Positions 1 through 58,196 are shown, numbered from the stretch's first letter. The stretch is DNA of 64,000 nt from an uncultured bacterium (GCA_963807165.1 CAWDZM010000001.1:32214-96213); one strand, 5' to 3'. Program-made: numbers and translations. The notes: generated by a model from the sequence alone, not told the origin.

Positions 1-141
1 ATGGAGCCCGGCAAGTGCGACGACCTCCGATGGTTCCCACTCGACGCCCTGCCCGACAACACCATTCCCTACATCCGCGAGGCGATCCGTTGCTATCGCG
101 AAGGCGTGGGGTACAGCGAGTGGGGGTTTGATATAATATAA
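1..141 (+). CDS. 3'-terminal fragment of a NUDIX-hydrolase-like protein, truncated by the window edge
   Basis: ORF in frame 1 from the window start to TAA at 139-141. The C-terminal LRWFPLDALP motif resembles NUDIX C-termini. Weak. Confidence 0.3.
   Translation: MEPGKCDDLRWFPLDALPDNTIPYIREAIRCYREGVGYSEWGFDII
132..137 (+). promoter_or_regulatory. TATAAT -10 hexamer 6 nt upstream of ATG 144 (leaderless-type promoter)
   Basis: Exact TATAAT with a 6-nt spacer to the start codon. The same geometry recurs at >=12 start codons in the window. Confidence 0.4.
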
Positions 142-143
142 AA

Positions 144-371
144 ATGAATTGGCTAAAGCAAAACTGGTTTAAGATGTCGTTTCTTATCGTCACGATTATA
201 GCCGTTGCTATGTGGGAAATAATTCAGTGGAAATATTATGAGCTTGAGAAATATCAAACTGAGCAATCAGCTATAAATTGGGCATTTACCGAAAATCATG
301 CTTCTAGTTTAGTTGGGACAAGAGAGGGGCAAGCTTTTAAAAACAATTTTTGGAATCTTTTTGATCATTAG
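144..371 (+). CDS. hypothetical small membrane protein, 75 aa with one TM helix
   Basis: ORF track. Hydrophobic stretch FLIVTIIAVAMW. Low-GC island. Confidence 0.35.
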   Translation: MNWLKQNWFKMSFLIVTIIAVAMWEIIQWKYYELEKYQTEQSAINWAFTENHASSLVGTREGQAFKNNFWNLFDH

Positions 372-403
372 CCCATTTCGAATGGAAATAATTTAAAGGT
401 GGG

Positions 404-1471
404 ATGACTGAAATGGACACACCTTATGTTCGTAACGATATAGAAAAATTTAGGCTGGTTGTGGAAGAGCTCGAGGTTTGTCGTGAAATGATAAAGTCGG
501 CATCTCACGTGAAATCTCGCACGGCTCTCATCTTAATGGATAATCTTGCAGAGATTTTGGCTATAAGAATTTATGAAGCAGCTTTTAAAAGGGATAATAC
601 TTTCGCTCTAGTAGAAAGGCCTCGTATAAATTTTGCAGAAATTAGGGATGCAAAAGGTGATTTTTCTAGAAAGATATCTCTCTTAGAAAAATTGGGGGCT
701 ATTTCTAAATATGATGCCAGCGTATTAAGAGTCAGTCATCAATATAGGAATGCGGCTTTTCATAGGGATACTCACAACGTATCTATAATAAGAAGCTTGG
801 CGATGGTTTGTTTTCGGAGTGTGTGCCATCTCTTTGTCGTCAATTATAATATCGGGGTTTCGTATGGCGGGATGGAGTCTTTGAGATGGCTCGTCCCGTA
901 TGCCAAAAATACAACTCGTTTGAATTTTCGGGAGGATTCTCAAATAATTGCGGACAAGCTCTTGAGGGGGATAACAAAGTCAGCAGCAACTCTGCGGAAG
1001 CATTTTGCGAAAGATATCCTTGAGCGCTTGAAGGATATCGGAAGCATAAGAAATGAAATCGGCTATGGTAATCCCGACTTGCTTTTGAATGAATTTTTGA
1101 GGTTGGCAGAATTCGACGAAGAACATCCATTTGCAAAATATGTTGAATATTATGCGTTTACCAGGAGTCTCGCTACGGCACAGCTAGATTCTCTAAAGGT
1201 GCAAGGCCAATTATTTGACCTTAAAGAAAAGGCTGATAAAAAAATGGAAGAGGATTTGAAACTATTCAAAGCGACTGTTTCTACAAAGATACTCGATGAG
1301 GCAGTAAATTTTTTGCGAAGGAGTGAATCTTTAAAATCGGCGGATAAAATCCTTTTTGCTTATCAGCAGCTGGATTTTAAACTCTCAAGATTCGAGTATT
1401 ATCTTTGGAAATTGGAAATAGAGTGGGACGAGCGTGTCCAAATGGAGATAGATTTTGCGAGGGGGAAATAG
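404..1471 (+). CDS. hypothetical alpha-helical protein with a HEPN-like Rx4H motif (YRNAAFH); putative RNase
   Basis: 355-aa ORF. AAAGGTGGG Shine-Dalgarno-like sequence 5 nt upstream. R-N-A-A-F-H matches the HEPN Rx4-6H signature. Low GC. Confidence 0.45.
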   Translation: MTEMDTPYVRNDIEKFRLVVEELEVCREMIKSASHVKSRTALILMDNLAEILAIRIYEAAFKRDNTFALVERPRINFAEIRDAKGDFSRKISLLEKLGAISKYDASVLRVSHQYRNAAFHRDTHNVSIIRSLAMVCFRSVCHLFVVNYNIGVSYGGMESLRWLVPYAKNTTRLNFREDSQIIADKLLRGITKSAATLRKHFAKDILERLKDIGSIRNEIGYGNPDLLLNEFLRLAEFDEEHPFAKYVEYYAFTRSLATAQLDSLKVQGQLFDLKEKADKKMEEDLKLFKATVSTKILDEAVNFLRRSESLKSADKILFAYQQLDFKLSRFEYYLWKLEIEWDERVQMEIDFARGK

Positions 1472-1473
1472 GG

Positions 1474-1479
1474 TATAAT
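1474..1479 (+). promoter_or_regulatory. TATAAT -10 hexamer 6 nt upstream of ATG 1486 (leaderless-type)
   Basis: Exact TATAAT directly after the stop of the upstream gene, 6 nt before the ATG. Confidence 0.4.
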
Positions 1480-1485
1480 AAAAAT

Positions 1486-1980
1486 ATGGATCCAAAGCAC
1501 GTTGTCTTTGTTAAGGATTTAATTAAAGGCAAAATTGCTGAGATTATTTTTGAGCAAATGTTTCGGGAATCGGAGAGGTACACCATCCTTCATTCCGGCT
1601 ATGAGTATACACTTCCCGAGCTTGCTCAATATCAACACCTCGCAGAAGTGAAGGCAGTGATTGAAAATATCAGGAACGCTCCAGATTTTGTTCTTATTTC
1701 ACAAGATAAGAGAGAGGTTTATTTAGTGGAAGTTAAATATCGAACACGTCGTTATCCCGAGGATTTGGCGAGAATCTGCGAGGAAACCTTAAAGACTTGG
1801 AATCCTTGCTGGCTTTTCATAGCTTCTCCTGATGGCTTTTTCTTCGAGCCGTGCAATTCCGTCTTGAATAATGACGGAAGGATAGGGGAATTGGTTAACG
1901 AGAGATTCGTTGACCATGCCATTAGGGATGAGTATCTGGAATTATTAAAAGAATTAGAGGTCGGGAATAACGTGCATTAA
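1486..1980 (+). CDS. PD-(D/E)xK-fold nuclease-like protein, 164 aa
   Basis: APDFVLI...EVYLVEVKYR gives a PD...ExK pattern typical of the restriction-endonuclease/Hjc-like fold. The Met at 1486 is preferred over the overlapping track start at 1405. Confidence 0.45.
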   Translation: MDPKHVVFVKDLIKGKIAEIIFEQMFRESERYTILHSGYEYTLPELAQYQHLAEVKAVIENIRNAPDFVLISQDKREVYLVEVKYRTRRYPEDLARICEETLKTWNPCWLFIASPDGFFFEPCNSVLNNDGRIGELVNERFVDHAIRDEYLELLKELEVGNNVH

Positions 1981-2020
1981 GCACGTCTTATGGTTTTAGT
2001 ACGGCAGTATTTTCAGGCTA

Positions 2021-3700
2021 TTAGGTAGAAGAAGCGGTCGTAGTAGAAGCTTCGCCCCAGGGGAGAAGATAATTTAATAATTCAGGAGAATTTAATAGCG
2101 GGCCAAGAGCGGTATAGTAGGCGTCCGCAGCTGCTTTTACTTTATTTATATCAGTGGTGTTCTGATAGACATTATTGAATAATGCTGTTTGGTAAAGTAT
2201 GTTTAGCATCACAGAATTAGAATCTATGGCTAATGCTTGTTTATATTTCGCGGCGCCTAATAAGTATTCACCCTGAATCGTATATAGCTTTCCCCAGTAC
2301 ATATAGGGGGTTGGGTCGTTTGGATATTTGTTTGCTAGCCATGAGAAAAATGTATTGAAGTTTGTAGTGGTGCTGCTCTCTACAAAATAGCCCAAAGATT
2401 GATCCAGTTTATCTTCATTGTAGGTACTTACATCGAGGACGCCTGTTAATCCCGTGCTTTCAAGAAGTTTGAGTACCTGCTCTTTTGGTAGTGAAGATGC
2501 TTGCGTAAAATATTGAGCCTCAAAAGATTGTAGGAATGACTGATAAGTTATGTCGTTCACATAAAGTCTGTTATCAAACATAGACTTCAAATACTCTTCT
2601 GCTAAAGGATAATTATTTTCCTGAGAATATATTTCTGCCATTTGACCATCAACATAGGCGTTCCAAGTGCCTGCGTCATCATTTATATAAGCTAAGAATT
2701 GTTTCTTTATGTTCGGGTCTCCAATGCCTTGTCCGACATTTTGGAGGTGTTGGTCGAGGAGTGTAAATTCATTTTGTGAATTTTGCATTAAAGCCAGAGC
2801 GACATCGTAGTTTTGCTTCTCGGTGTACGCAGGAACGAAAAATTGTTCTAGCATAGCTTTATCAACTGCCCCAATATAAAAACCCTCATCATGGGGCGAT
2901 AAAACGCCCAATTTAACTAATCTATTAATCCGATTCTGCACATCAAAATAGGCGTATATATTGGAATCAGGGAAAAATAGCGGGAATCTTACAACGGGAT
3001 TTAGATATGTAATAAGGCCAGTCGAATCTGTTTCGACGAGATTGGCCATTCCGAGGCAATTAGAATCTTGAAGGATAAAATTATCTATGGGTTTTTTTTG
3101 TAACCCATAGTATCGGAGAACTGACGGGGGGATAGAAGTCTGTATAAGTGTGAGCGGAGGGATGGATTCTGAAGTGTCGGTGAAATCAATTGTTGGAGGT
3201 TGGCTTAGTACATAGGAGCTTGATTTGAGAGGGGTCGAAAGAAGTGCGTCATAAATTCCTTGATTGATATTTTGGTCTATCTCTGTATTTGATGTAAATG
3301 AGCCAGAAGAAGTTAGCGTTAGTGGTTGAATGAAAGAAACTGTAAATATTTGATTTGGATCGCAACTATTTCCGTGCAAATATGCGATTTGTTGATGGAC
3401 TATATAAGTAGAAACAAGCGCGATCAAAAGAAGAAAAACATAGAATATTTTTTTATTCCTATTTAGTTGTTTATATAAAGCGAGTGCGGTGAGGGCGATG
3501 ATTCCTAAAAAAGTTAAGGTGATAAATATATATCTGTTGAAAATGAGAAAAAGGTAATAATTTATAACAGTAAATCCGGGTGCTAAAAATGAGAAAACAT
3601 TTGTGAAGAGAGCTAATAAAAAAGCCGAAATTAACCCACCAATAACGGTGATGAGAATGCCCTGCCGAAACTCTTTTGTCTTTCGAGGTTTTTTCTCCAT
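2021..3700 (-). CDS. integral membrane protein: N-terminal multi-TM region plus a large extracytoplasmic TPR-like/Tyr-rich domain
   Basis: 559-aa ORF. About 4 hydrophobic helices at the N-terminus. C-terminal repeats resemble TPR. Low GC. Confidence 0.55.
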   Translation of the reverse strand: MEKKPRKTKEFRQGILITVIGGLISAFLLALFTNVFSFLAPGFTVINYYLFLIFNRYIFITLTFLGIIALTALALYKQLNRNKKIFYVFLLLIALVSTYIVHQQIAYLHGNSCDPNQIFTVSFIQPLTLTSSGSFTSNTEIDQNINQGIYDALLSTPLKSSSYVLSQPPTIDFTDTSESIPPLTLIQTSIPPSVLRYYGLQKKPIDNFILQDSNCLGMANLVETDSTGLITYLNPVVRFPLFFPDSNIYAYFDVQNRINRLVKLGVLSPHDEGFYIGAVDKAMLEQFFVPAYTEKQNYDVALALMQNSQNEFTLLDQHLQNVGQGIGDPNIKKQFLAYINDDAGTWNAYVDGQMAEIYSQENNYPLAEEYLKSMFDNRLYVNDITYQSFLQSFEAQYFTQASSLPKEQVLKLLESTGLTGVLDVSTYNEDKLDQSLGYFVESSTTTNFNTFFSWLANKYPNDPTPYMYWGKLYTIQGEYLLGAAKYKQALAIDSNSVMLNILYQTALFNNVYQNTTDINKVKAAADAYYTALGPLLNSPELLNYLLPWGEASTTTASST

Positions 3701-3879
3701 GCCCAGCCACTTAACTTTGACCCCCTAATAAGCTCTATCTTAAAGGACTTTTCATATTCCCGAAAGAGAGGTTTGGCTAGCTCTAATTGGAAATGAGAAA
3801 ATCAAAAGATAATAAATTTACCAAGCTTGGAGATGGAAATACTGAAATTACTCGGTATTTTGCGCTATAATATCCCCAC

Positions 3880-5413
3880 ATGCTCCAATCCACCGCCCTA
3901 GCCCTGCTCAAAACGGGCGAGAACGTATTCCTGACCGGCGCGCCGGGCGCGGGGAAGACGTACGTCCTCAATCAATATATCGATTTCCTGAACCAGTACG
4001 AGGTGGAGGCGGCCGTCACGGCGTACACCGGGATCGCGGCGAGCCACATCAACGGGCGGACGCTCCATTCGTGGGCGGGGCTGACGCGCGGGCCGATGCA
4101 CGAGGACGCGCAGGAGGTGGATCGCGTGCGGGCGAATGAGTATCCTGACCGACCGCATCCGCCGCGCGCGGGTGCTTATTATAGACGAGATCAGCATGCT
4201 GCATCCCGCGCAGTTCGATCGCGTGGATCTGATCTGCCGCACCGCGCGGAATTCGCACGAGCCGTTCGGCGGATTACAGCTCATCTGTTGCGGCGATTTC
4301 TTTCAGATCCCGCCGGTGAACGGCGAGAGTGAAAAGTTTGTGATCGACTCCGTCGCGTGGAAGAACGCGGACATGCGCGTGTGTTATCTGACGGAACAGC
4401 ATCGGCAGGCGGGTGCCGTCGATGGGAGCGGTGTTTCAAGCAGCGGCGAACTCTTAGAGATTCTGGACGCCATCCGCGCGGGCGCCGTGACGCCGGCGGT
4501 CGTTGCCGCGCTCGACGCGCGTATCGGAGCGGCGATCGATGCGCCGATCGGCATCGCGCGACTCTACACCCATCGCGAGAATGTGGATGAGATCAACGCC
4601 GCGGAACTGCGCAAGCTCGCGACACCGGACGTCGTCTACGACGCGTACCAGAGCGGCCCCGCGGCGCTCGTCGAAAAATTAAAAAAAGATAACGACGTGC
4701 CGGACAAATTCGTTTTAAAGATCGGCGCGCGCGTGATGTTTACCAAAAATAATATGGGCGCGGGATACGTGAACGGCACACTCGGCGAAGTGATCGGGTT
4801 TGAGAACGGGGGAGATGGGAACAACGGCGAGTCGGTGGGTAAAAATGCCGCTGGTGCACCAATGCCGCAAACCGCCACCGAAGCGAACCCCGTCATTATG
4901 ACGTTTGATAAAAAGAAAATAACCCCAGGCCGCTTTCAGTGGAAAGTGGAGGAAGGCGGCAAAGTACGCGCGAGCGTTTCCCAGCTGCCGCTCAAACTCG
5001 CGTGGGCGATCACCGTGCACAAGAGCCAGGGGATGACGCTCGACGCCGCCGTGATCGACCTTGGCCGCGCCTTCGACCGCGGCATGGGCTATGTGGCGCT
5101 CTCGCGCGTGCGCGAGCTTAAGAACATCTCCTTGATAGGCTTCAACGCCGTTGCTCTGCAAGTGAGCCCGCGCGTGCAATCGCTCGACGCCGGCTTCCGC
5201 GCCTCCTCGCGGCGCGCAGAGGACGACATTGCCGCGCTCCCCGCCGACGAACTGCGCGCCGCGCAGAGCGAGTTCATCCGCCGCGCGGGCGAGGAGTCGG
5301 GCCCGAAAGGCCATTCTGCGACAGCCGGCCATGAGGCCGGGGCCGGCACTGTCTTTGACGACCTGCGCATTGACTACACCGACATCGACGAAATGCCCGT
5401 GGCGGATTTTTGA
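3880..5413 (+). CDS. PIF1/RecD-like superfamily 1 helicase, split by a +1 frameshift near 4125-4140
   Basis: Walker A GAPGAGKT. Motif II LIIDEISM and GGLQLICCGDFFQIPPV sit in the second frame. C-terminal ITVHKSQG and GYVALSRV motifs. GC-rich. Two track ORFs (3880-4332 and 4136-5413) join into one helicase. Confidence 0.7.
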
Positions 5414-5454
5414 GGCCAGGCCGGCTTTTTAGATAGTTTTAATGCAGCATCTGC

Positions 5455-5460
5455 TACTAT
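5455..5460 (+). promoter_or_regulatory. TACTAT -10-like hexamer 6 nt upstream of ATG 5467
   Basis: Same -10/6-nt/ATG geometry as the other instances. Confidence 0.3.
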
Positions 5461-5466
5461 CGCAGG

Positions 5467-5853
5467 ATGGAGAAAGATTTTTCGAAATGGCACGACTTTA
5501 AAAGTAAACTTCAAAAGATCGACAAAAGATTCTATTTTCAAGAACGGGGTATTTGGCTCTGCTCAGTGGGGTTAAATCTTGGCCACGAAGAGGATGGGAA
5601 ACGAGATCAATTTTTAAGACCAGTTATTGTTTTTAAAAAATTTGATGACGATACTTTTTGGGGCATTCCGCTAACGAGTCAAGTGCACGGAGGCGTTCGC
5701 TACTTCCAATTTTTATTTGGTAATCGTATTGCGGTTGCAATGCTATCTCAGATGCGTCTTTTTGATAGAAAACGCTTTATCCGTAGGATCGGCGAAATGT
5801 CCAACTCAGAATTTGATAGATTAAAATCGCAATTGCGCAACATGATGCAATAA
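5467..5853 (+). CDS. MazF/PemK-family endoribonuclease toxin-like protein
   Basis: Aligns to MazF: RGIWLCSVGLNLGHEEDGKRDQFLRPVIVF...GIPLTSQ versus GDLIWVDFDPTKGSEQAGHRPAVVLSP...CVPCTTQ. 128 aa. Confidence 0.6.
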   Translation: MEKDFSKWHDFKSKLQKIDKRFYFQERGIWLCSVGLNLGHEEDGKRDQFLRPVIVFKKFDDDTFWGIPLTSQVHGGVRYFQFLFGNRIAVAMLSQMRLFDRKRFIRRIGEMSNSEFDRLKSQLRNMMQ

Positions 5854-5858
5854 AAAAC

Positions 5859-5886
5859 GGAACCCCTTCTGAAAAGAAGGGGTTCC
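5859..5886. terminator. perfect 11-bp GC-rich hairpin (GGAACCCCTTC / GAAGGGGTTCC) just after mazF-like gene
   Basis: Inverted repeat seen directly. The A-run lies on the upstream side only, so the plus-strand U-tract is weak. Confidence 0.4.
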
Positions 5887-6096
5887 TCGGAGGCCAAAAG
5901 GCCAAAGAGTCGTTCGGAACCCTCACATTGAGATTCCTCGGAGGCCGAAGCCAAAATGGATCCCATGATCCTGTTATTATTCTACTCAAAGCGATTTACT
6001 CGTCAAATCTTTTTTAATAAATATTTAATGTGCAATAAGGTATGATTACCGTAAGGTCGTCGAACCCTAAATCCTAAAATAAAAAATAATACTATT

Positions 6097-6216
6097 ATGG
6101 CACAAGACGAAGATGTGGATGTAAACGAAGAATTGGAGCACGAGGTTGAGGCAGAGGACATCGAGGCCAACACGGACGACACGCCGACGGATGACAACGG
6201 CGACGCAAAGGAATAG
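6097..6216 (+). CDS. possible 39-aa highly acidic peptide upstream of the YggU-like gene
   Basis: ATG...TAG ORF, MAQDEDVDVNEELEHEVEAEDIEANTDDTPTDDNGDAKE. Below the ORF-track size cutoff. Speculative. Confidence 0.15.
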   Translation: MAQDEDVDVNEELEHEVEAEDIEANTDDTPTDDNGDAKE

Positions 6217-6222
6217 TGCGAG

Positions 6223-6462
6223 ATGAAGATCTTTGTGCGTGCAAAGCCTGGCGTCAAAAAAGAATATATAAAAGAGACGACCGATCTTTTTGAAAAGTCC
6301 GGCGAGCGGCATTTTGTGGTGGCGGTTGCTGCGCGTGCGGTGGACGGAAGGGCGAATCGCGCGATCGAAAAAGCGCTCGCGGAACATTTTAATGTGCCGC
6401 CGTCTCGCGTGCGGATTGTTTCTGGGCAAACGACAAAGGAAAAAATTGTAGAAATCGGATAA
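6223..6462 (+). CDS. YggU/DUF167 (UPF0235) family protein
   Basis: 79 aa. The AARAVDGRANRAIEKALAEHFNVPPSRVRIVSG pattern matches the DUF167 consensus. Confidence 0.65.
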   Translation: MKIFVRAKPGVKKEYIKETTDLFEKSGERHFVVAVAARAVDGRANRAIEKALAEHFNVPPSRVRIVSGQTTKEKIVEIG

Positions 6463-6737
6463 ATAAAAGCGGCGGCACGATGGTTGGTCGTGTCGCCGAT
6501 GTTCTTTATGCGGCCTTGGCCTTCGGTGACGGAGAAGGTCTTTTAGGTAAAAAATTATTTATCAGCGTTGTTTGGAGCCTGAAGGATTCCTCCGGGGCGA
6601 ATAGCGCTTGAGGGCCATCATCGCCACGGTAGAATTGACGATGCTGTTCCGACACGGATAACGGATTTTCTGACGATGTGATTCTCATCGCGTGCCTCCA
6701 ATCCCTTTCTACTTTCAGTATATCACTTGTGGTGTTG

Positions 6738-6743
6738 TATAAT
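6738..6743 (+). promoter_or_regulatory. TATAAT -10 hexamer 7 nt upstream of gpsA ATG 6751 (leaderless-type)
   Basis: Exact hexamer. No Shine-Dalgarno sequence. Confidence 0.4.
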
Positions 6744-6750
6744 AGTAGCT

Positions 6751-7656
6751 ATGGATACTTCAACCCGCGTGGTGATCATCGGCGCCGGAGAACTTGGCAA
6801 GGCAATCGGTGGCTTGATCGTAAAGAAAGGCGCTGGCGTGGATCTTTGGGACGCGAATCCGGCGGTGGTGCCGGGGCAGAAGCCGCTCGCAGAGATCGTC
6901 CCGCTTGCGCACTATGTGTTCTTTTGCGTCCCTTCGTGGGCGATGCGCGATGCGGTGGTCAGCGTGGTGCCGTATCTTTCGCCGCAAGCGGCGGTGTTTT
7001 CCTTTGCAAAGGGGATAGAGAAATATTCCTTCCAGACGATGGCGGAGGTGGTGCCGGCGCTCTTGCCGCCGACCCAGCCGTTTGTGGTGGTGGGCGGACC
7101 GATGCTCGCGGAGGAGATCAACGTCGGCAAGCGCGCGATCGGCGTTTTTGCATCGCCTGACGCCGCCGCGCGCGAATCCGCGCGCGAGCTCTTTACCGGC
7201 GATCGTTTCCATGTGGAAACCTCCGAGGACGCGCCGGGTGTCGCGCTCGCGGGTGTCCTTAAGAATATTTATGCGGTTGCGCTCGGCATTGCGGACGGGT
7301 TAGAGCTCTCCGGCAACGAGAAAGGCTGGCTGACCGGCCGCGCGATCTCCGAGATGCGCGATATCGCCGGAGTGATGGGCGTCGAGAAGGATACGATATT
7401 GGGCGCCGCGGGAGTGGGGGATTTTATCGCAACCGGATACAGCGTGCATTCACGCAATCATCAAACGGGCGTTGAGATCGTGGCGACGGGAAAGTGCGAC
7501 ATCCGTGGCGAGGGACTGACCGCGCTCCCGTTCCTCATTGAACGCTTAGGAAAGGAAAAAGCGGCGACGTTTGCGTTGCTTATGCTGGTGAATACGATTG
7601 GGATCGAGTGCAAACCGGCGCGCGAAGCATTCGAAGCGTTCTTCGCCGCCCGCTAA
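6751..7656 (+). CDS. gpsA: NAD(P)H-dependent glycerol-3-phosphate dehydrogenase
   Basis: N-terminal VVIIGAGELGKA Rossmann motif. GpsA-like core. The Met at 6751 is preferred over the track start at 6727. Confidence 0.8.
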   Translation: MDTSTRVVIIGAGELGKAIGGLIVKKGAGVDLWDANPAVVPGQKPLAEIVPLAHYVFFCVPSWAMRDAVVSVVPYLSPQAAVFSFAKGIEKYSFQTMAEVVPALLPPTQPFVVVGGPMLAEEINVGKRAIGVFASPDAAARESARELFTGDRFHVETSEDAPGVALAGVLKNIYAVALGIADGLELSGNEKGWLTGRAISEMRDIAGVMGVEKDTILGAAGVGDFIATGYSVHSRNHQTGVEIVATGKCDIRGEGLTALPFLIERLGKEKAATFALLMLVNTIGIECKPAREAFEAFFAAR

Positions 7657-8390
7657 ACGCCGCCGCTCTGGTGCCATAAGCTATCAAAAAGTACTTCCAT
7701 CGAGTGATGGATGCTCTCATCCTCCATCACGATGCCAAACGGCATCTTTTTGTTGAGGGAGATGATGGCAACTTTGTTGGCATAGATGAATGTGCAGTTG
7801 TGGATCTCTATTGCGGCGGGCAAGAACTGCGTGACGCGCAGTTCCTCGCCATCTCGTTGCTTGAGCGCCATCGCTTCCTTTGACTTTGGGGTCAATATCC
7901 GCATCCTTAAATAGTGCCGATAGCGCTTTTCGATAAAATCTTCCAAGTATGGCAGGCCGAGGAGTTCAATCCATTCTTCCCACGAGAGCAACGCAGAAAT
8001 ATGTTGCTTCGCATCCAGGATGTCGTTCATGATCTGGTGGATTTCGTCCACGCCCGTGTATGCCCGGATCTTAGGCTGTGCGGCGGGGTCTTTGCGGAGT
8101 GATTGAAGGGCAGGCAGAGCCAGGGTAAGTGCCTCCTCGCGCTCTTTCAAGGCGGCAAGGAGCTTCTCTGGGTTCTCTGCCGACCACATCTTGCGCTTGC
8201 GTTGGATGTAGGCCGACATGAGCCCTTTTTTGTTGAGGGAGGCAATGATAAGGTTGGCGCTTGTGCGGGGGATTCGTGCCTTTTTGGCGATATCCGTGGC
8301 AGAACTTGCCCCTAATTCGAGCGCAGCCAAATATACCGATGCCTCTAAAGGCGAATAACCAAGAGCCTCAATGACGGTTTTGATGCGCAT
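7653..8390 (-). CDS. TrmB-family transcriptional regulator
   Basis: N-terminal HTH: LGYSPLEASVYLAALELGASSATDIAKKARIPRTSANLIIASLNKKGL. Confidence 0.65.
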   Translation of the reverse strand: MRIKTVIEALGYSPLEASVYLAALELGASSATDIAKKARIPRTSANLIIASLNKKGLMSAYIQRKRKMWSAENPEKLLAALKEREEALTLALPALQSLRKDPAAQPKIRAYTGVDEIHQIMNDILDAKQHISALLSWEEWIELLGLPYLEDFIEKRYRHYLRMRILTPKSKEAMALKQRDGEELRVTQFLPAAIEIHNCTFIYANKVAIISLNKKMPFGIVMEDESIHHSMEVLFDSLWHQSGGV

Positions 8391-54511: not shown

Positions 54512-54584
54512 GCCCTCGTGGTCCAATGGATAGGGCGTCTCGCTTCTAGCGAGTACGATGCGGGTTCAACTCCTGCCGAGGGCG
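54512..54584 (+). tRNA. tRNA-Arg (anticodon TCT)
   Basis: Acceptor GCCCTCG/CGAGGGC, D-arm GTCC-AATGGATA-GGGC, loop CTTCTAG, T-arm GCGGG-TTCAACT-CCTGC. Confidence 0.8.
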
Positions 54585-54611
54585 CGGATTCTGAAAGTGA
54601 GTATAAAATAT

Positions 54612-54640
54612 AAAGACGTCTATAAAAAATAGACGTCTTT
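54612..54640. terminator. bidirectional terminator AAAGACGTCTA-TAAAAAA-TAGACGTCTTT
   Basis: Perfect 11-bp inverted repeat between the tRNA-Arg (+) and GIY-YIG gene (-) 3' ends. Confidence 0.5.
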
Positions 54641-54656
54641 ATTATGTCCACCCTAC

Positions 54657-54944
54657 CTATCCGACTTTCTGGTTGCAAGAAGGCCGAAGCTCAAGAATTA
54701 ATTCTTTTTCTCGATTCGATGGATCTCCCGATATAACTTCGCCAACCCAATGCGTGGGTATCTCCCGAGTTATATACTGGTTATCTCCATTCAAGTGAGC
54801 CAGTAGTCGCGTGCGGATATCTCCCTTACCAACATAGACCCACCTTCCTTGCTTAAAGAGACCGTACACGCCATTTTGATTTAGGTTTAGCGCTTCAATA
54901 TCTTGACGGCTAAAAGCTCGTGGCGTTTGTTGAATAAATGACAT
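54657..54944 (-). CDS. standalone GIY-YIG nuclease-domain protein (YhbQ/UPF0213-like)
   Basis: GVYGLFKQGRWVYVGKGDIRTRLLAHL gives GIY...YIG plus the conserved Arg. Glu in REKELI. Low GC. Confidence 0.65.
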   Translation of the reverse strand: MSFIQQTPRAFSRQDIEALNLNQNGVYGLFKQGRWVYVGKGDIRTRLLAHLNGDNQYITREIPTHWVGEVISGDPSNREKELILELRPSCNQKVG

Positions 54945-55203
54945 ATATCTTTTTATGGTGAATATGATCGACCTTTTGTTATTCGTAGGTGTTACAATAA
55001 TTGATCTAATATTAGCCCCTTATTATTGTATGTCAAGCTTGTCAAGTGTTCAATAATGTTTATACTAAAAGATGAAGATTTGGCGCTAGTATGAAAGAAG
55101 TCTATTTTAATAAGGACTATAAGCATTTGGCGGAATATTAAAAAATGATAAAAACTAAATAGACAGACATATATTTCCCCCGTAAGATTACTATAAATAA
55201 AAA

Positions 55204-55986
55204 ATGCCAAGTTTCAACGATCTAAAATTGGAGGATTGGAAAAATTCAGAAATCTGGACCGATAGTCTCTGGATTATTTCTGAAAGAGATAAAAGCGGGA
55301 AACACGATGGGTTTTACCACGGGAATTTTGTCCCTCAAATTCCTCGTCAATTAATTTCTCGCTATACAAAGGAAAATGAAGTTGTATTTGATCCATTTGT
55401 AGGAAGTGGTACAACCGCTTACGAAGCCGAAGAGCTGGGTAGACATTTTATCGGGGTAGATATCCAATCCAAGTTGATTAAATATATTAGAGAGAAAGTT
55501 GATGACAAGAAGTTTTTTTCAGAATTGATTGTTGGTGATAGTTCAGATGAAAACATTATCTCTACGATTTCTGATATTTTAAAAAAGAAGAAGAAAAGAA
55601 GTATTCACTTTGCGATATTGCATCCACCGTATGCCAATATCATTAAATTTAGCAATAACAAAGCAGATTTATCCAACGCAAAATCATTAAAGGATTTTCT
55701 CGATAGATTTTCTCTAGTTGTTAAGAATACGGTTTCTTTATTAGAAAAAAATCGATATTTAGCGGTCGTTATTGGGGATAAATATCAACAAGGGCAGTGG
55801 GTTCCGCTCGGTTTTTACTGCTTAAATGAGGTGCAGAAGCAAGGATTAACTTTAAAGAGTATAATTATAAAGAATATGGAAGGGAATAGGGGGAAGCAAA
55901 ATAAGGAGGGCATCTGGCGCTATCGAGCGCTATCGAGCGATTACTATATTTTTAAGCACGAATATATTTTTATATTTAAGAATTAA
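55204..55986 (+). CDS. N6-adenine/N4-cytosine DNA methyltransferase with permuted motif order (FxGxG before DPPY-like)
   Basis: Motif I FDPFVGSGTTAYEAEELGRHFIGVDI at residues ~70-95. Motif IV ILHPPY at ~136. Low GC. Confidence 0.7.
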   Translation: MPSFNDLKLEDWKNSEIWTDSLWIISERDKSGKHDGFYHGNFVPQIPRQLISRYTKENEVVFDPFVGSGTTAYEAEELGRHFIGVDIQSKLIKYIREKVDDKKFFSELIVGDSSDENIISTISDILKKKKKRSIHFAILHPPYANIIKFSNNKADLSNAKSLKDFLDRFSLVVKNTVSLLEKNRYLAVVIGDKYQQGQWVPLGFYCLNEVQKQGLTLKSIIIKNMEGNRGKQNKEGIWRYRALSSDYYIFKHEYIFIFKN

Positions 55987-55990
55987 AGTC

Positions 55991-56896
55991 GTGAGCGATA
56001 TCAAGGATCAATTGTCGGTGGTACTAGCGAAAAAGATTTTTGGAAATTCCAAGGTTGCGTTGGAATATTTAAAGCGACTGAATACTATCAAGGAAATTAA
56101 TGGCATCACAAGTAGAACTCTTACGCGCGGAGTTCGTGTGGGGTTGGAGGTGCTGGGTATCAATGCAGATAAAGATATCTGGCAAATAGTTGTTGAAAGC
56201 TGGGACTATGAATCTAGCAAAAAGATTATTCGAGGTATATTTAAGGAGGGAAATAAGTATAGGGTGGGAGTGGAAGCGGATGTGGCGATGGGAATTCTTA
56301 TTAAAGAGTGGGAAGCGTTGAGTTTGGGTAAAATCGAATGGCCATTCTCTCAGGGGGATTTTGATGGCTTTGTTCAGGGAATTAATAATTCTAGTAATGA
56401 ACTTGGGGTAATTAAGGATGAAAAAGTAAAAGCGGCGGCGGTGAAATATCGAAGAATTAAAGAAATTAATACTGTCAGAAACGATTTTATAGAGACTTTG
56501 ATTTTTGAAAAAAATGAAAATATTATTCCGACTCTAAGCCATCGAAGGGGAGTCGACTTCTTTATCGACGGAGTTCCTTTTGACCAAAAAGTTGCAAAAA
56601 GTCCAACAAATCAATTTAAAGTAAAATTCGGTGATGATTGGAAAAATGAGGCAATAAAAAATCCAGCATTAGTTGCTGAATATTTATATAAATATCAAGA
56701 CGAGGGTCGTTTCGGTGCTGATCCGCGCTTGCTTGTCGTTTATTTAGATGAAGATATTTCCATACAAAAAATTAGAGAAATTTTAGGGAAGATTGACCTT
56801 AGTGATCCTATGGAAATTCAATTTGAATTTAGCCACGAAGTCGGAGGGGCCAAAAACTATAAAACAAAATGTTTTGTAATACTGCTTCATAATTAA
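55991..56896 (+). CDS. putative type II restriction endonuclease (PD-(D/E)xK-like) between two methyltransferase genes
   Basis: Position within the R-M cassette. Candidate catalytic stretch RRGVDFFIDGVPFDQKVAK (D...D.K). GTG start. Confidence 0.35.
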   Translation: MSDIKDQLSVVLAKKIFGNSKVALEYLKRLNTIKEINGITSRTLTRGVRVGLEVLGINADKDIWQIVVESWDYESSKKIIRGIFKEGNKYRVGVEADVAMGILIKEWEALSLGKIEWPFSQGDFDGFVQGINNSSNELGVIKDEKVKAAAVKYRRIKEINTVRNDFIETLIFEKNENIIPTLSHRRGVDFFIDGVPFDQKVAKSPTNQFKVKFGDDWKNEAIKNPALVAEYLYKYQDEGRFGADPRLLVVYLDEDISIQKIREILGKIDLSDPMEIQFEFSHEVGGAKNYKTKCFVILLHN

Positions 56897-56906
56897 CACA
56901 CAATAT

Positions 56907-57974
56907 ATGAACTATATCGGGAGTAAATTATCTCTACTAAATTTTTTAGAAACATCCATCGATTCTGTTACCAAGGGAGAGCAGAAGACATTTTTAGATC
57001 TTTTTGCTGGCACCGGTGCGGTTGGTCTCCATTTTAAAAAGAAGGGGTACAAAGTCTATGCTAACGATTTGCAATATTATAGCTTTGTTTTAAATCGCCA
57101 TTATATAGGTAATCATAAGGAAATGGAGTTTGAGGGATTAGCAAATATAATCCCAGGAATAACGAGTGCTAAAAAGAGCGATAAAAAAAATCTTGTGTGT
57201 GAGTATTTGGGTTCGATAAAAGGAACAAAAGGATTTATTTATAAGAACTATTGTCCGGGAGGCACGGTCAATAGTTCGGTCCAGAGATTATATTTTTCAG
57301 ATGAAAATGGAATGAAATGCGATTCAATCAGGCAGAAAATTGAACAATGGAAAAAGAAATTACAGATTACAGATAATGAATATTACTTTCTTCTCGCTTC
57401 ATTATTAGAATCGATCGATAAACATGCTAATACCGCATCGGTCTACGGTGCTTTTTTAAAAAAAATAAAGAAGTCGGCTCTTAGGCCAGTCGTTTTAAAG
57501 CCAGCGAATTTATTTATTAATGACCATGAACATAAAGTGTTTAATGAAAATATAAATACTTTGGTAAAAAAAGTAAGCGGAGATATTTTATATCTTGATC
57601 CGCCATATAACCAGAGACAATATGCGACCAATTATCATATACTTGAAACTATCGCAAGATACGATAATCCTAAAATTCACGGTAAGACAGGATTGAGAGA
57701 TTATAAATCTCAAAAGTCTTTATACTCTTCGCGTCCCCAGGTTAAAAAAGCTTTTAGAGAACTTATATCAAACGCAAAAGTTAAATATATCTTTTTGAGC
57801 TATAACAACGAAGGGTTAATGACTATGCAAGATATAAAAGAGATTATGGGCACGAGAGGGGAATATGGTTTCTTTGCTCAGAAATATGGGCGTTTTAAAG
57901 CCGATAAAGATTCAAACCGGGGATACAAAGATAATAAAACAACTGAATATCTCCACTATGTTGTTTGTAAATAA
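56907..57974 (+). CDS. Dam-like (alpha-class) N6-adenine DNA methyltransferase
   Basis: MNYIGSKLSLL...FLDLFAGTGAVG N-terminus (motif X/I) and ILYLDPPYN motif IV, the D12-class architecture. Confidence 0.8.
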   Translation: MNYIGSKLSLLNFLETSIDSVTKGEQKTFLDLFAGTGAVGLHFKKKGYKVYANDLQYYSFVLNRHYIGNHKEMEFEGLANIIPGITSAKKSDKKNLVCEYLGSIKGTKGFIYKNYCPGGTVNSSVQRLYFSDENGMKCDSIRQKIEQWKKKLQITDNEYYFLLASLLESIDKHANTASVYGAFLKKIKKSALRPVVLKPANLFINDHEHKVFNENINTLVKKVSGDILYLDPPYNQRQYATNYHILETIARYDNPKIHGKTGLRDYKSQKSLYSSRPQVKKAFRELISNAKVKYIFLSYNNEGLMTMQDIKEIMGTRGEYGFFAQKYGRFKADKDSNRGYKDNKTTEYLHYVVCK

Positions 57975-58196
57975 AAAGAGTATCCTGGATCTGACTTTTT
58001 CCGCGCACTTGATGTTGTAGGCGCTAGTAATATAATTTATTCGTTCCTTGAAAGCTGACGGGGATTGGCTTGGGCCCTTCTTTTATTCTTGGACTAAATC
58101 TCCTTTATCCCCCCTCGGTAGTCGCTTCTGGCGATTGCCGCGGGGGCTGGTATAAAGGTTGAACAGTCCCGAGTAATAAACTAATCCTAAGCGACC

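Follow-up and report, generated by a model that had tools for sequence, protein, structure and literature searches.

Does a short, low-GC block in the genome of an uncultured bacterium encode one defence system, or several genes that were acquired independently? The block lies near the left end of a 64,000-nucleotide stretch of DNA (GCA_963807165.1 CAWDZM010000001.1:32214-96213), which we refer to as the window. It carries four open reading frames (ORFs): a gene for a 355-aa protein with a HEPN-type Rx4H motif, a gene for a 164-aa protein with a PD-(D/E)xK nuclease signature directly behind it, a gene for a 559-aa membrane protein on the opposite strand, and a short ORF of 75 aa. An original prediction, made from the sequence, had read the 355-aa, 164-aa and 559-aa proteins as a candidate defence or toxin module. 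We confirmed that the four ORFs exist and that the quoted motifs are present. We found that the HEPN and nuclease families occur apart elsewhere, and therefore read the block as probably a mosaic, made up of accessory or defence-type genes that were acquired independently, and not as a co-evolving system. The features of the block are listed below, each with its basis in brackets.

98..3871, no strand: low-GC block, mean about 0.39 GC (composition profiles, contig L006)
132..137, + strand: TATAAT box, 6 nt 5' of the ATG of the 75-aa ORF (sequence)
144..371, + strand: 75-aa ORF, a single N-terminal transmembrane helix being predicted at residues 8-29 (ORF list, hydropathy scan)
404..1471, + strand: 355-aa protein, N-terminal HEPN-like helical bundle and C-terminal all-helical domain of about 200 aa (family profile, AF2, Foldseek)
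746..763, + strand: R115-N-A-A-F-H120, predicted HEPN Rx4H catalytic motif (99-sequence family alignment)
1474..1479, + strand: TATAAT box, 6 nt 5' of the ATG (1486) of the 164-aa gene (sequence)
1486..1980, + strand: 164-aa PD-(D/E)xK nuclease (homologues, invariant residues, AF2, Foldseek)
2021..3700, - strand: 559-aa orphan membrane protein (ORF list, hydropathy scan)

The HEPN-like and nuclease genes are not co-conserved

The gene for the 164-aa protein directly follows that for the 355-aa protein on the same strand; 14 nt separate its ATG from the stop codon before it, and low GC is common to both. These features favor a single toxin-antitoxin or abortive-infection module in which the HEPN protein acts together with the PD-(D/E)xK nuclease and perhaps also the membrane protein. 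We looked for the pairing from both sides. A hidden Markov model of the HEPN family, compared with 84 nuclease loci (83 further loci and the window), matched in the window only and in none of the 83 others. In the reverse direction, none of six other loci of the HEPN family contained a homologue of the 164-aa protein, and the HEPN protein was the sole protein that these loci had in common. The original prediction had itself named a lack of co-conservation as evidence against a module. The two genes are not conserved together (1 of 84 nuclease loci, 0 of 6 other HEPN loci), so the module is not supported, and the proposed new two-gene system dissolves: the pairing was found in no other locus examined.

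The 164-aa gene also has a promoter to itself, both in the window and in other genomes. Having no homologue, the 559-aa protein cannot be a conserved component of a system, and PADLOC had no match for either the HEPN or the nuclease family. Another PD-(D/E)xK nuclease does come after the HEPN-family gene in L001, the locus of the closest relative of the 355-aa protein, but that nuclease (MrcB_N+NucS_C) is unrelated to the 164-aa family beyond the fold class (hhalign probability 0.3%). We consider a single module of this kind to be largely refuted and highly improbable.

A block of foreign composition

Composition profiles and per-gene GC values agreed with the earlier description of a low-GC block of about 3.6 kb between GC-rich genes. 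Positions 98-3871 have a GC content of about 39% and are flanked by genes of 58-62% GC. By ORF, the GC content is 0.35 (75 aa), 0.39 (355 aa), 0.41 (164 aa) and 0.38 (559 aa), compared to 0.58 in the left fragment (1-143), 0.62 in the PIF1-like gene on the right, and 0.50 over the full window. With 0.39 in the block and 0.58-0.62 in the flanks, the block has the deviant composition of a genomic island and is compositionally foreign. The same limits were seen in an independent assembly from another run: Logan contig L006 is 100% identical to window positions 98-3871 and stops at each of the two GC transitions, a hint of population heterogeneity, or of a change in coverage, at the two borders. 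We also considered an integrative element, and rejected it because an integrase, repeats and a tRNA were all not found at the block, whose left flank falls outside the window.

The 355-aa protein is very probably a HEPN protein

The start of the 355-aa ORF is probably the ATG at position 413 (352 aa), because protein P0001 of another assembly starts there and because the AAGGTGG box is only 1 nt before position 404. The motif YRNAAFH corresponds to residues 114-120 of the 355-aa ORF (nt 743-763). A word-indexed search found seven relatives. An exhaustive profile search returned 1023 cluster representatives at E<=1e-3, 550 at 1e-10 and 134 at 1e-30, and most members of the family are 340-390 aa long. 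We aligned 99 of the best matches (18-66% identity to the query). Just two columns of this alignment, R115 and H120, were invariant; N116, H112, R39, D46, R208 and E331 were conserved in at least 90% of the members. The pattern R-N-x-x-x-H is a HEPN signature (PMC3710099).

The AlphaFold2 (AF2) model of the protein was confident (pLDDT 81.5, pTM 0.75) and all-helical, with four long N-terminal helices at residues 12-31, 35-66, 102-116 and 126-147 and the motif where helix 3 meets helix 4. Foldseek detected no global match to the model in the PDB. There were domain-sized local matches to HepT (7bxo_G, 5yep_C, 6m6w_G, 6m6u_H) and YutE (1ylm), with probabilities of 0.6-0.92, target-normalised TM-scores of 0.43-0.63 and E-values near 1. 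For 7bxo_G, 5yep_C and 6m6w_G, the probabilities were 0.82-0.92 and the target-normalised TM-scores 0.57-0.63. Most full-length matches were to long-helix proteins (for example, axonemal proteins and fusions of G-protein-coupled receptors) and were treated as noise.

At the level of sequence, Pfam DUF4145 matched residues 83-123, over the motif, at a sub-threshold 13 bits (E 0.11; gathering score 23.1 bits). It matched 3 of the 99 members, the best at 18.8 bits, which is also below the gathering score, and no other Pfam signal recurred. The family had no meaningful match in Pfam, NCBIfam, PADLOC or PHROGs, and searches of PDB sequences with the family profiles gave spurious helical matches only. 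Comparison of the profile with other HEPN proteins by hhalign (Ymh-type in L009, Cthe_2314-like in L005) was uninformative. Because the R and H of the RNxxxH motif are invariant in the 99 members, the local structural matches are to HepT/DUF86, and the weak DUF4145 match lies over the motif, the 355-aa protein very probably belongs to the HEPN superfamily, and we uphold the earlier assignment.

Members of the family were also detected in a Margulisiibacteriota genome and in other uncultured lineages. Four distant relatives were found on plasmids, in Streptomyces, where they are annotated as hypothetical and have uninformative neighbours. The family was not found in IMG/VR viral contigs. One member (P0222) is a fusion in which a Clp_N domain is N-terminal to the HEPN-family body, and another (P0183) has a 230-aa N-terminal extension without a Pfam match.

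Relatives of the 355-aa protein keep defence-island company without a fixed partner

The loci of the family differ from one another in gene content.

L001 (relative with 67% identity): UvrD-like helicase gene, its end 1 nt upstream of the HEPN-family gene; then an MrcB_N+NucS_C nuclease gene, a MazG-like gene and an SLFN-type helicase gene
L002-L004: DUF1156 methylase and SNF2 helicase genes (DISARM-like), GmrSD, and a RES-Xre pair
L005: gene whose product weakly matches Cthe_2314-type HEPN
L016-L019: TIR-domain gene ending 1 nt upstream of the HEPN-family gene
L020: TIR/SEFIR and DpnII genes

An all-against-all BLASTP comparison of the ORFs from seven independent HEPN loci identified no common neighbour family besides the HEPN protein itself, and the family is therefore without a fixed partner. 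It keeps the company of defence islands, with TIR, UvrD-like, DISARM-like, type IV restriction and MazG genes near its members. The TIR/HEPN pairs of L016-L019 and the UvrD-like/HEPN pair of L001 may represent two-gene systems with a variable first gene and a HEPN gene in second place. The pair in L016 is at positions 6400-8071, and that in L001 is at 2542-5233.

The 355-aa protein resembles known single-gene HEPN effectors in layout

DUF4145 is a HEPN family whose fusion partners include a UvrD helicase, TIR and restriction endonuclease domains, and whose operon associations include restriction-modification (R-M) systems (PMC3710099). It is also the catalytic domain of RAZR, a defence RNase (PMC13017515). 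The 355-aa family is like DUF4145 (PF13643, CL0291) and RAZR/PD-T7-4 in having an Rx4H motif in a helical bundle, as modelled, and in the types of partner, which overlap. RAZR is a single-gene abortive-infection RNase (PMC13017515), the role that we propose for the 355-aa protein. In contrast to these proteins, no member of the 355-aa family reaches the Pfam gathering score or has a PADLOC match. Unlike RAZR, the 355-aa protein has no zinc-finger N-terminal domain; it is the HEPN domain that is N-terminal, and the rest of the protein is a helical domain of about 200 aa that is specific to the family.

BxaP combines a DUF4145 domain at its N terminus with a helical domain at its C terminus. Its gene is found within or next to BREX or R-M systems, and the protein works by itself, through abortive infection (PMC10799925). 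The 355-aa protein has the layout of BxaP/PD-T7-3: a single gene, an N-terminal HEPN domain and an all-helical C-terminal domain. However, BxaP is longer (>400 aa), and homology beyond the superfamily level was not found. In an hhalign comparison of the 355-aa profile with BxaP and ORF5348, the probability was 0.05, which is not significant, with R110..H115 of BxaP in register with R115..H120. PADLOC models (2023 release, PD-T7-3 included if held) gave no match of note to the 99 members. Ishtar is another single-gene HEPN defence protein (bioRxiv 10.64898/2026.07.06.735840). The resemblance of the 355-aa family to BxaP, RAZR and Ishtar is thus one of layout, and homology to BxaP or to the PADLOC models was not found.

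HepT of the HEPN-MNT system (HepT-MntA, DUF86) is the best structural match of the N-terminal domain and has an Rx4H RNase site. Compared with HepT, the 355-aa protein is about 2.7 times longer, and the two do not match at the sequence level. There is no MNT nucleotidyltransferase gene adjoining the 355-aa gene, whose neighbours are the 75-aa transmembrane ORF and the PD-(D/E)xK gene.

From its motif, its modelled fold and its genomic company, the 355-aa protein is most likely a stand-alone HEPN protein of a large unannotated branch, and by analogy it would be an RNase of the abortive-infection type. If it works as RAZR, BxaP and Ishtar do, it would dimerise, and the dimer would form a composite RNase site. 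Until infection is sensed, by its C-terminal domain or by a variable neighbour, it would be kept inactive. The activated protein would then cleave cellular or phage RNA, causing growth to stop. RNase activity, activation of this kind and a role in defence are the most likely interpretation by analogy. The family is sizeable and unannotated and carries RNxxxH, which makes it a reasonable, though unsurprising, candidate for a single-gene abortive-infection effector.

The 164-aa protein belongs to a distinct nuclease family

The quoted motifs of the 164-aa protein are at residues 65-71 (APDFVLI) and 77-86 (EVYLVEVKYR). A longer reading of 191 aa from a TTG at 1405 was rejected; the ATG is the start in the homologues, and the extension takes in the TATAAT box. 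There are at least 499 homologues, and the best 120, which are those listed, are 58-84% identical. Among the matches listed, those with a named source are all from Patescibacteria (Minisyncoccia, Paceibacterota, Wolfebacteria, Parcubacteria). Judging from these source names, the block probably lies in a Patescibacteria genome.

E23, D67, E82 and K84 are invariant in 43 aligned sequences, as are K14, G15 and E19. An invariant GYEYTLPELAQYQ insert, comprising 30 highly conserved residues, is located between strands 1 and 2. The AF2 model (pLDDT 92) has the alpha-beta-beta-beta-alpha-beta order of the PD-(D/E)xK core. All of its Foldseek matches were PD-(D/E)xK enzymes. The best of these, in the PDB and a viral library, were Hjc, RecU and the influenza PA-N endonuclease, with TM-scores of 0.3-0.5 and, for Hjc and RecU, E-values of 2.6e-4 to 4e-3. 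The earlier PD-(D/E)xK reading thus stands. We conclude that the protein is a PD-(D/E)xK nuclease of a distinct family, with a catalytic function that is predicted from sequence and model.

The original prediction had pointed to Hjc and RecU as housekeeping families into which the protein might fall. The 43 members matched 25 Pfam families at E<=0.5, and neither an Hjc nor a RecU profile was among them. Weak matches to TnsA_N, VRR_NUC, NERD and BsuBI/PstI were found in most members, with TnsA_N in 36 of the 43. Pfam, NCBIfam, PADLOC and PHROGs provided no annotation for the family, which was also not found in IMG/VR viral contigs or plasmids. Archaeal Hjc and bacterial RecU are likewise small PD-(D/E)xK nucleases with E...D...ExK residues, and they are the top structural matches. 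The 164-aa family differs from them in the low TM-scores, in having no profile match to them, in its 30-residue insert, and in neighbourhoods that are variable and R-M-rich.

The nuclease gene is present in one copy per locus, and there is no conserved neighbour across the loci; the largest neighbour cluster, a serine recombinase, was found in five. About 15 of 150 immediate neighbours are restriction-modification or related genes (GmrSD, HNH, EcoRI, MmeI, Eco57I, D12 and C5 methylases, DpnI), a count that stands without a control set, and the rest include housekeeping genes. The GC content of the nuclease gene is lower than that of its flanks in 36 of 40 loci. DNA similarity between genomes (L007) covers the gene and about 20 nt upstream of its ATG. 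With its own promoter, no fixed neighbour, and DNA similarity confined to the gene and these 20 nt, the 164-aa gene thus behaves as a self-contained promoter-plus-gene cassette. In one locus (L063), a gene for a PIF1-like helicase (1-1128), 42% identical to the one in the window, is about 3.9 kb upstream of the 164-aa homologue (5001-5477). This single case is probably a coincidence.

Leaderless-type promoters

The leaderless-type promoter that had been proposed for the 164-aa gene was confirmed as the TATAAT box at 1474-1479. This box makes the gene a separate transcription unit. A TAnAAT box is also present 4-10 nt before the ATG in 24 of 59 homologues of the gene from other genomes. Within the window, a TATAAT box precedes the ATG by 6-8 nt in three cases (75-aa ORF, 164-aa gene, PIF1-like gene), and the pattern TATAAT-N4-10-ATG occurs 15 times compared to 3.7 expected. 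Because of this excess, leaderless transcription seems to be common in the source genome. A scan of the window for consensus promoters and terminators gave results not above chance.

The 559-aa and 75-aa proteins are orphans

A search of 5.8 billion proteins detected no homologue of the 559-aa protein other than itself. A hydropathy scan indicated three to four N-terminal transmembrane helices (residues 11-106), followed by a large C-terminal domain. The location on the opposite strand and the multiple transmembrane helices agree with the original prediction. The TPR-like exodomain that was also proposed is based on one TPR_2 match (residues 466-495), which is sub-threshold (E 0.0073; 16.8 bits vs a cut-off of 27). 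The 75-aa ORF had no match in Pfam, NCBIfam, PADLOC or PHROGs, and no ORF similar to it was found beside the HEPN-family genes in the six other loci. Both proteins are lineage-specific orphans.

Weighing the interpretations

Several observations weigh against a mosaic of acquired genes. We found no meaningful flanking direct repeats around the block, and no integrase or recombinase ORF in positions 1-6200, the left flank falling outside the window in both cases. A tRNA target of the kind that marks a classical island is also absent from the block (the nearest tRNA is at 24 kb). The HEPN sample consists of seven independent loci, so that a frequent but non-universal partner could escape. The R-M neighbours of the nuclease were counted without a control, and the 58-84% identity among its listed homologues would also suit a housekeeping enzyme. 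The last point bears on the alternative that the 164-aa protein has a housekeeping role in Patescibacteria as a DNA-structure nuclease, such as an Hjc/RecU-like Holliday-junction resolvase or a repair endonuclease, and is in the block by chance. The best structural matches, the Patescibacteria origin of all source-named homologues, the single copy per locus and the absence of the family from IMG/VR viral contigs and plasmids are consistent with this. On the other side, the TM-scores to resolvases are 0.3-0.5, there is no Hjc/RecU match in Pfam while weak matches to TnsA_N, VRR_NUC, NERD and restriction enzymes recur, synteny with recombination genes is not conserved, the gene has a lower GC content than its flanks in most loci, and R-M genes are frequent neighbours. 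A search of the literature on resolvases in Patescibacteria found nothing. We regard the housekeeping alternative as somewhat unlikely and lean towards an accessory or defence-type DNA nuclease, which seems a little better than an even guess. In our main interpretation, the 164-aa protein is a predicted metal-dependent PD-(D/E)xK endonuclease (E23, D67, E82-x-K84), unrelated to the HEPN protein and expressed from its own leaderless promoter. In the Patescibacteria, which have reduced genomes and are largely uncultured, it could be either a missing repair or resolvase function or a compact defence gene.

For the HEPN gene, a functional pair with the 75-aa ORF has to be considered, in which the small membrane protein would be a sensor, an anchor or an antitoxin in the layout with a variable first gene. 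The two genes are on the same strand, 32-41 nt apart, with one TATAAT box at 132-137; the 1-nt gaps in L016-L019 (TIR) and L001 (UvrD-like) suggest operons with a variable first gene; and membrane-linked HEPN proteins have been described (PMC3710099). However, no 75-aa homologue was found beside the family members of the six other loci, the ORF has no family match and may not be a real gene, and L002, L013 and L020 have no co-directional upstream partner. Such a pair is quite unlikely. It is slightly less likely still that the 355-aa protein is an inactive helical scaffold or regulator whose conserved Arg and His bind rather than catalyse. In favor of this are the lack of a significant profile match to a catalytic HEPN family and the existence of HEPN-clan domains that only bind substrate, such as the C-terminal domains of nucleotidyltransferases (PMC3710099). 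But it is exactly the R and H of Rx4H that are invariant in the 99 members, with the next N nearly so, which is the catalytic signature. The non-catalytic families tabulated in PMC3710099 are without the Rx4H motif, and the defence-gene neighbourhoods fit an effector. A more specific form of the mosaic interpretation, in which the 355-aa protein represents an undescribed family (>500 clusters) of single-gene HEPN effectors with a helical sensor, encoded alone or behind variable first genes, and the 164-aa gene is a stand-alone defence nuclease cassette, is possible, and we hold it tentatively. Neither the HEPN-family lead nor the nuclease lead alters a general concept.

Flanking genes and other accessory patches in the window

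Outside the block, two further genes on its right side had Pfam matches.

3880..5413, + strand: PIF1-like helicase gene, split over two reading frames (Pfam PIF1)
5467..5853, + strand: PemK/MazF-like toxin gene, GC 0.385 (Pfam PemK_toxin, 8.6e-8)

The PIF1-family gene is GC-rich (0.62) as described and has PIF1 matches, but these are in two frames: 3880-4332 (1.9e-11, profile positions 19-88) and 4136-5413 (1.2e-17, profile positions 96-218, with 2B and UvrD_C_2 domains). The change of frame occurs between approximately 4113 and 4145. The gene could be a pseudogene with a frameshift, the shift could be programmed, or the assembly could be in error. The left flank is GC-rich as described, but the supposed NUDIX fragment is 46 aa long and has a weak MutT match only (E 0.24). 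The MazF-like gene has no obvious antitoxin ORF upstream, and there is a strong hairpin terminator at 5859-5886.

The source genome probably has further accessory patches, including the MazF-like gene at 5467-5853 and an R-M block at 54.5 kb. There, in positions 54512-58000, a tRNA-Arg(tct) gene (54512-54585) precedes a second low-GC block (0.35-0.42). Domains read by eye suggest that this second block is probably a restriction-modification island. It contains a 95-aa GIY-YIG-like ORF (54657-54944, - strand) and two methyltransferase-like ORFs at 55204-55986 (DPFVGSGTT) and 56907-57974 (DPPY), with a 301-aa ORF between them.

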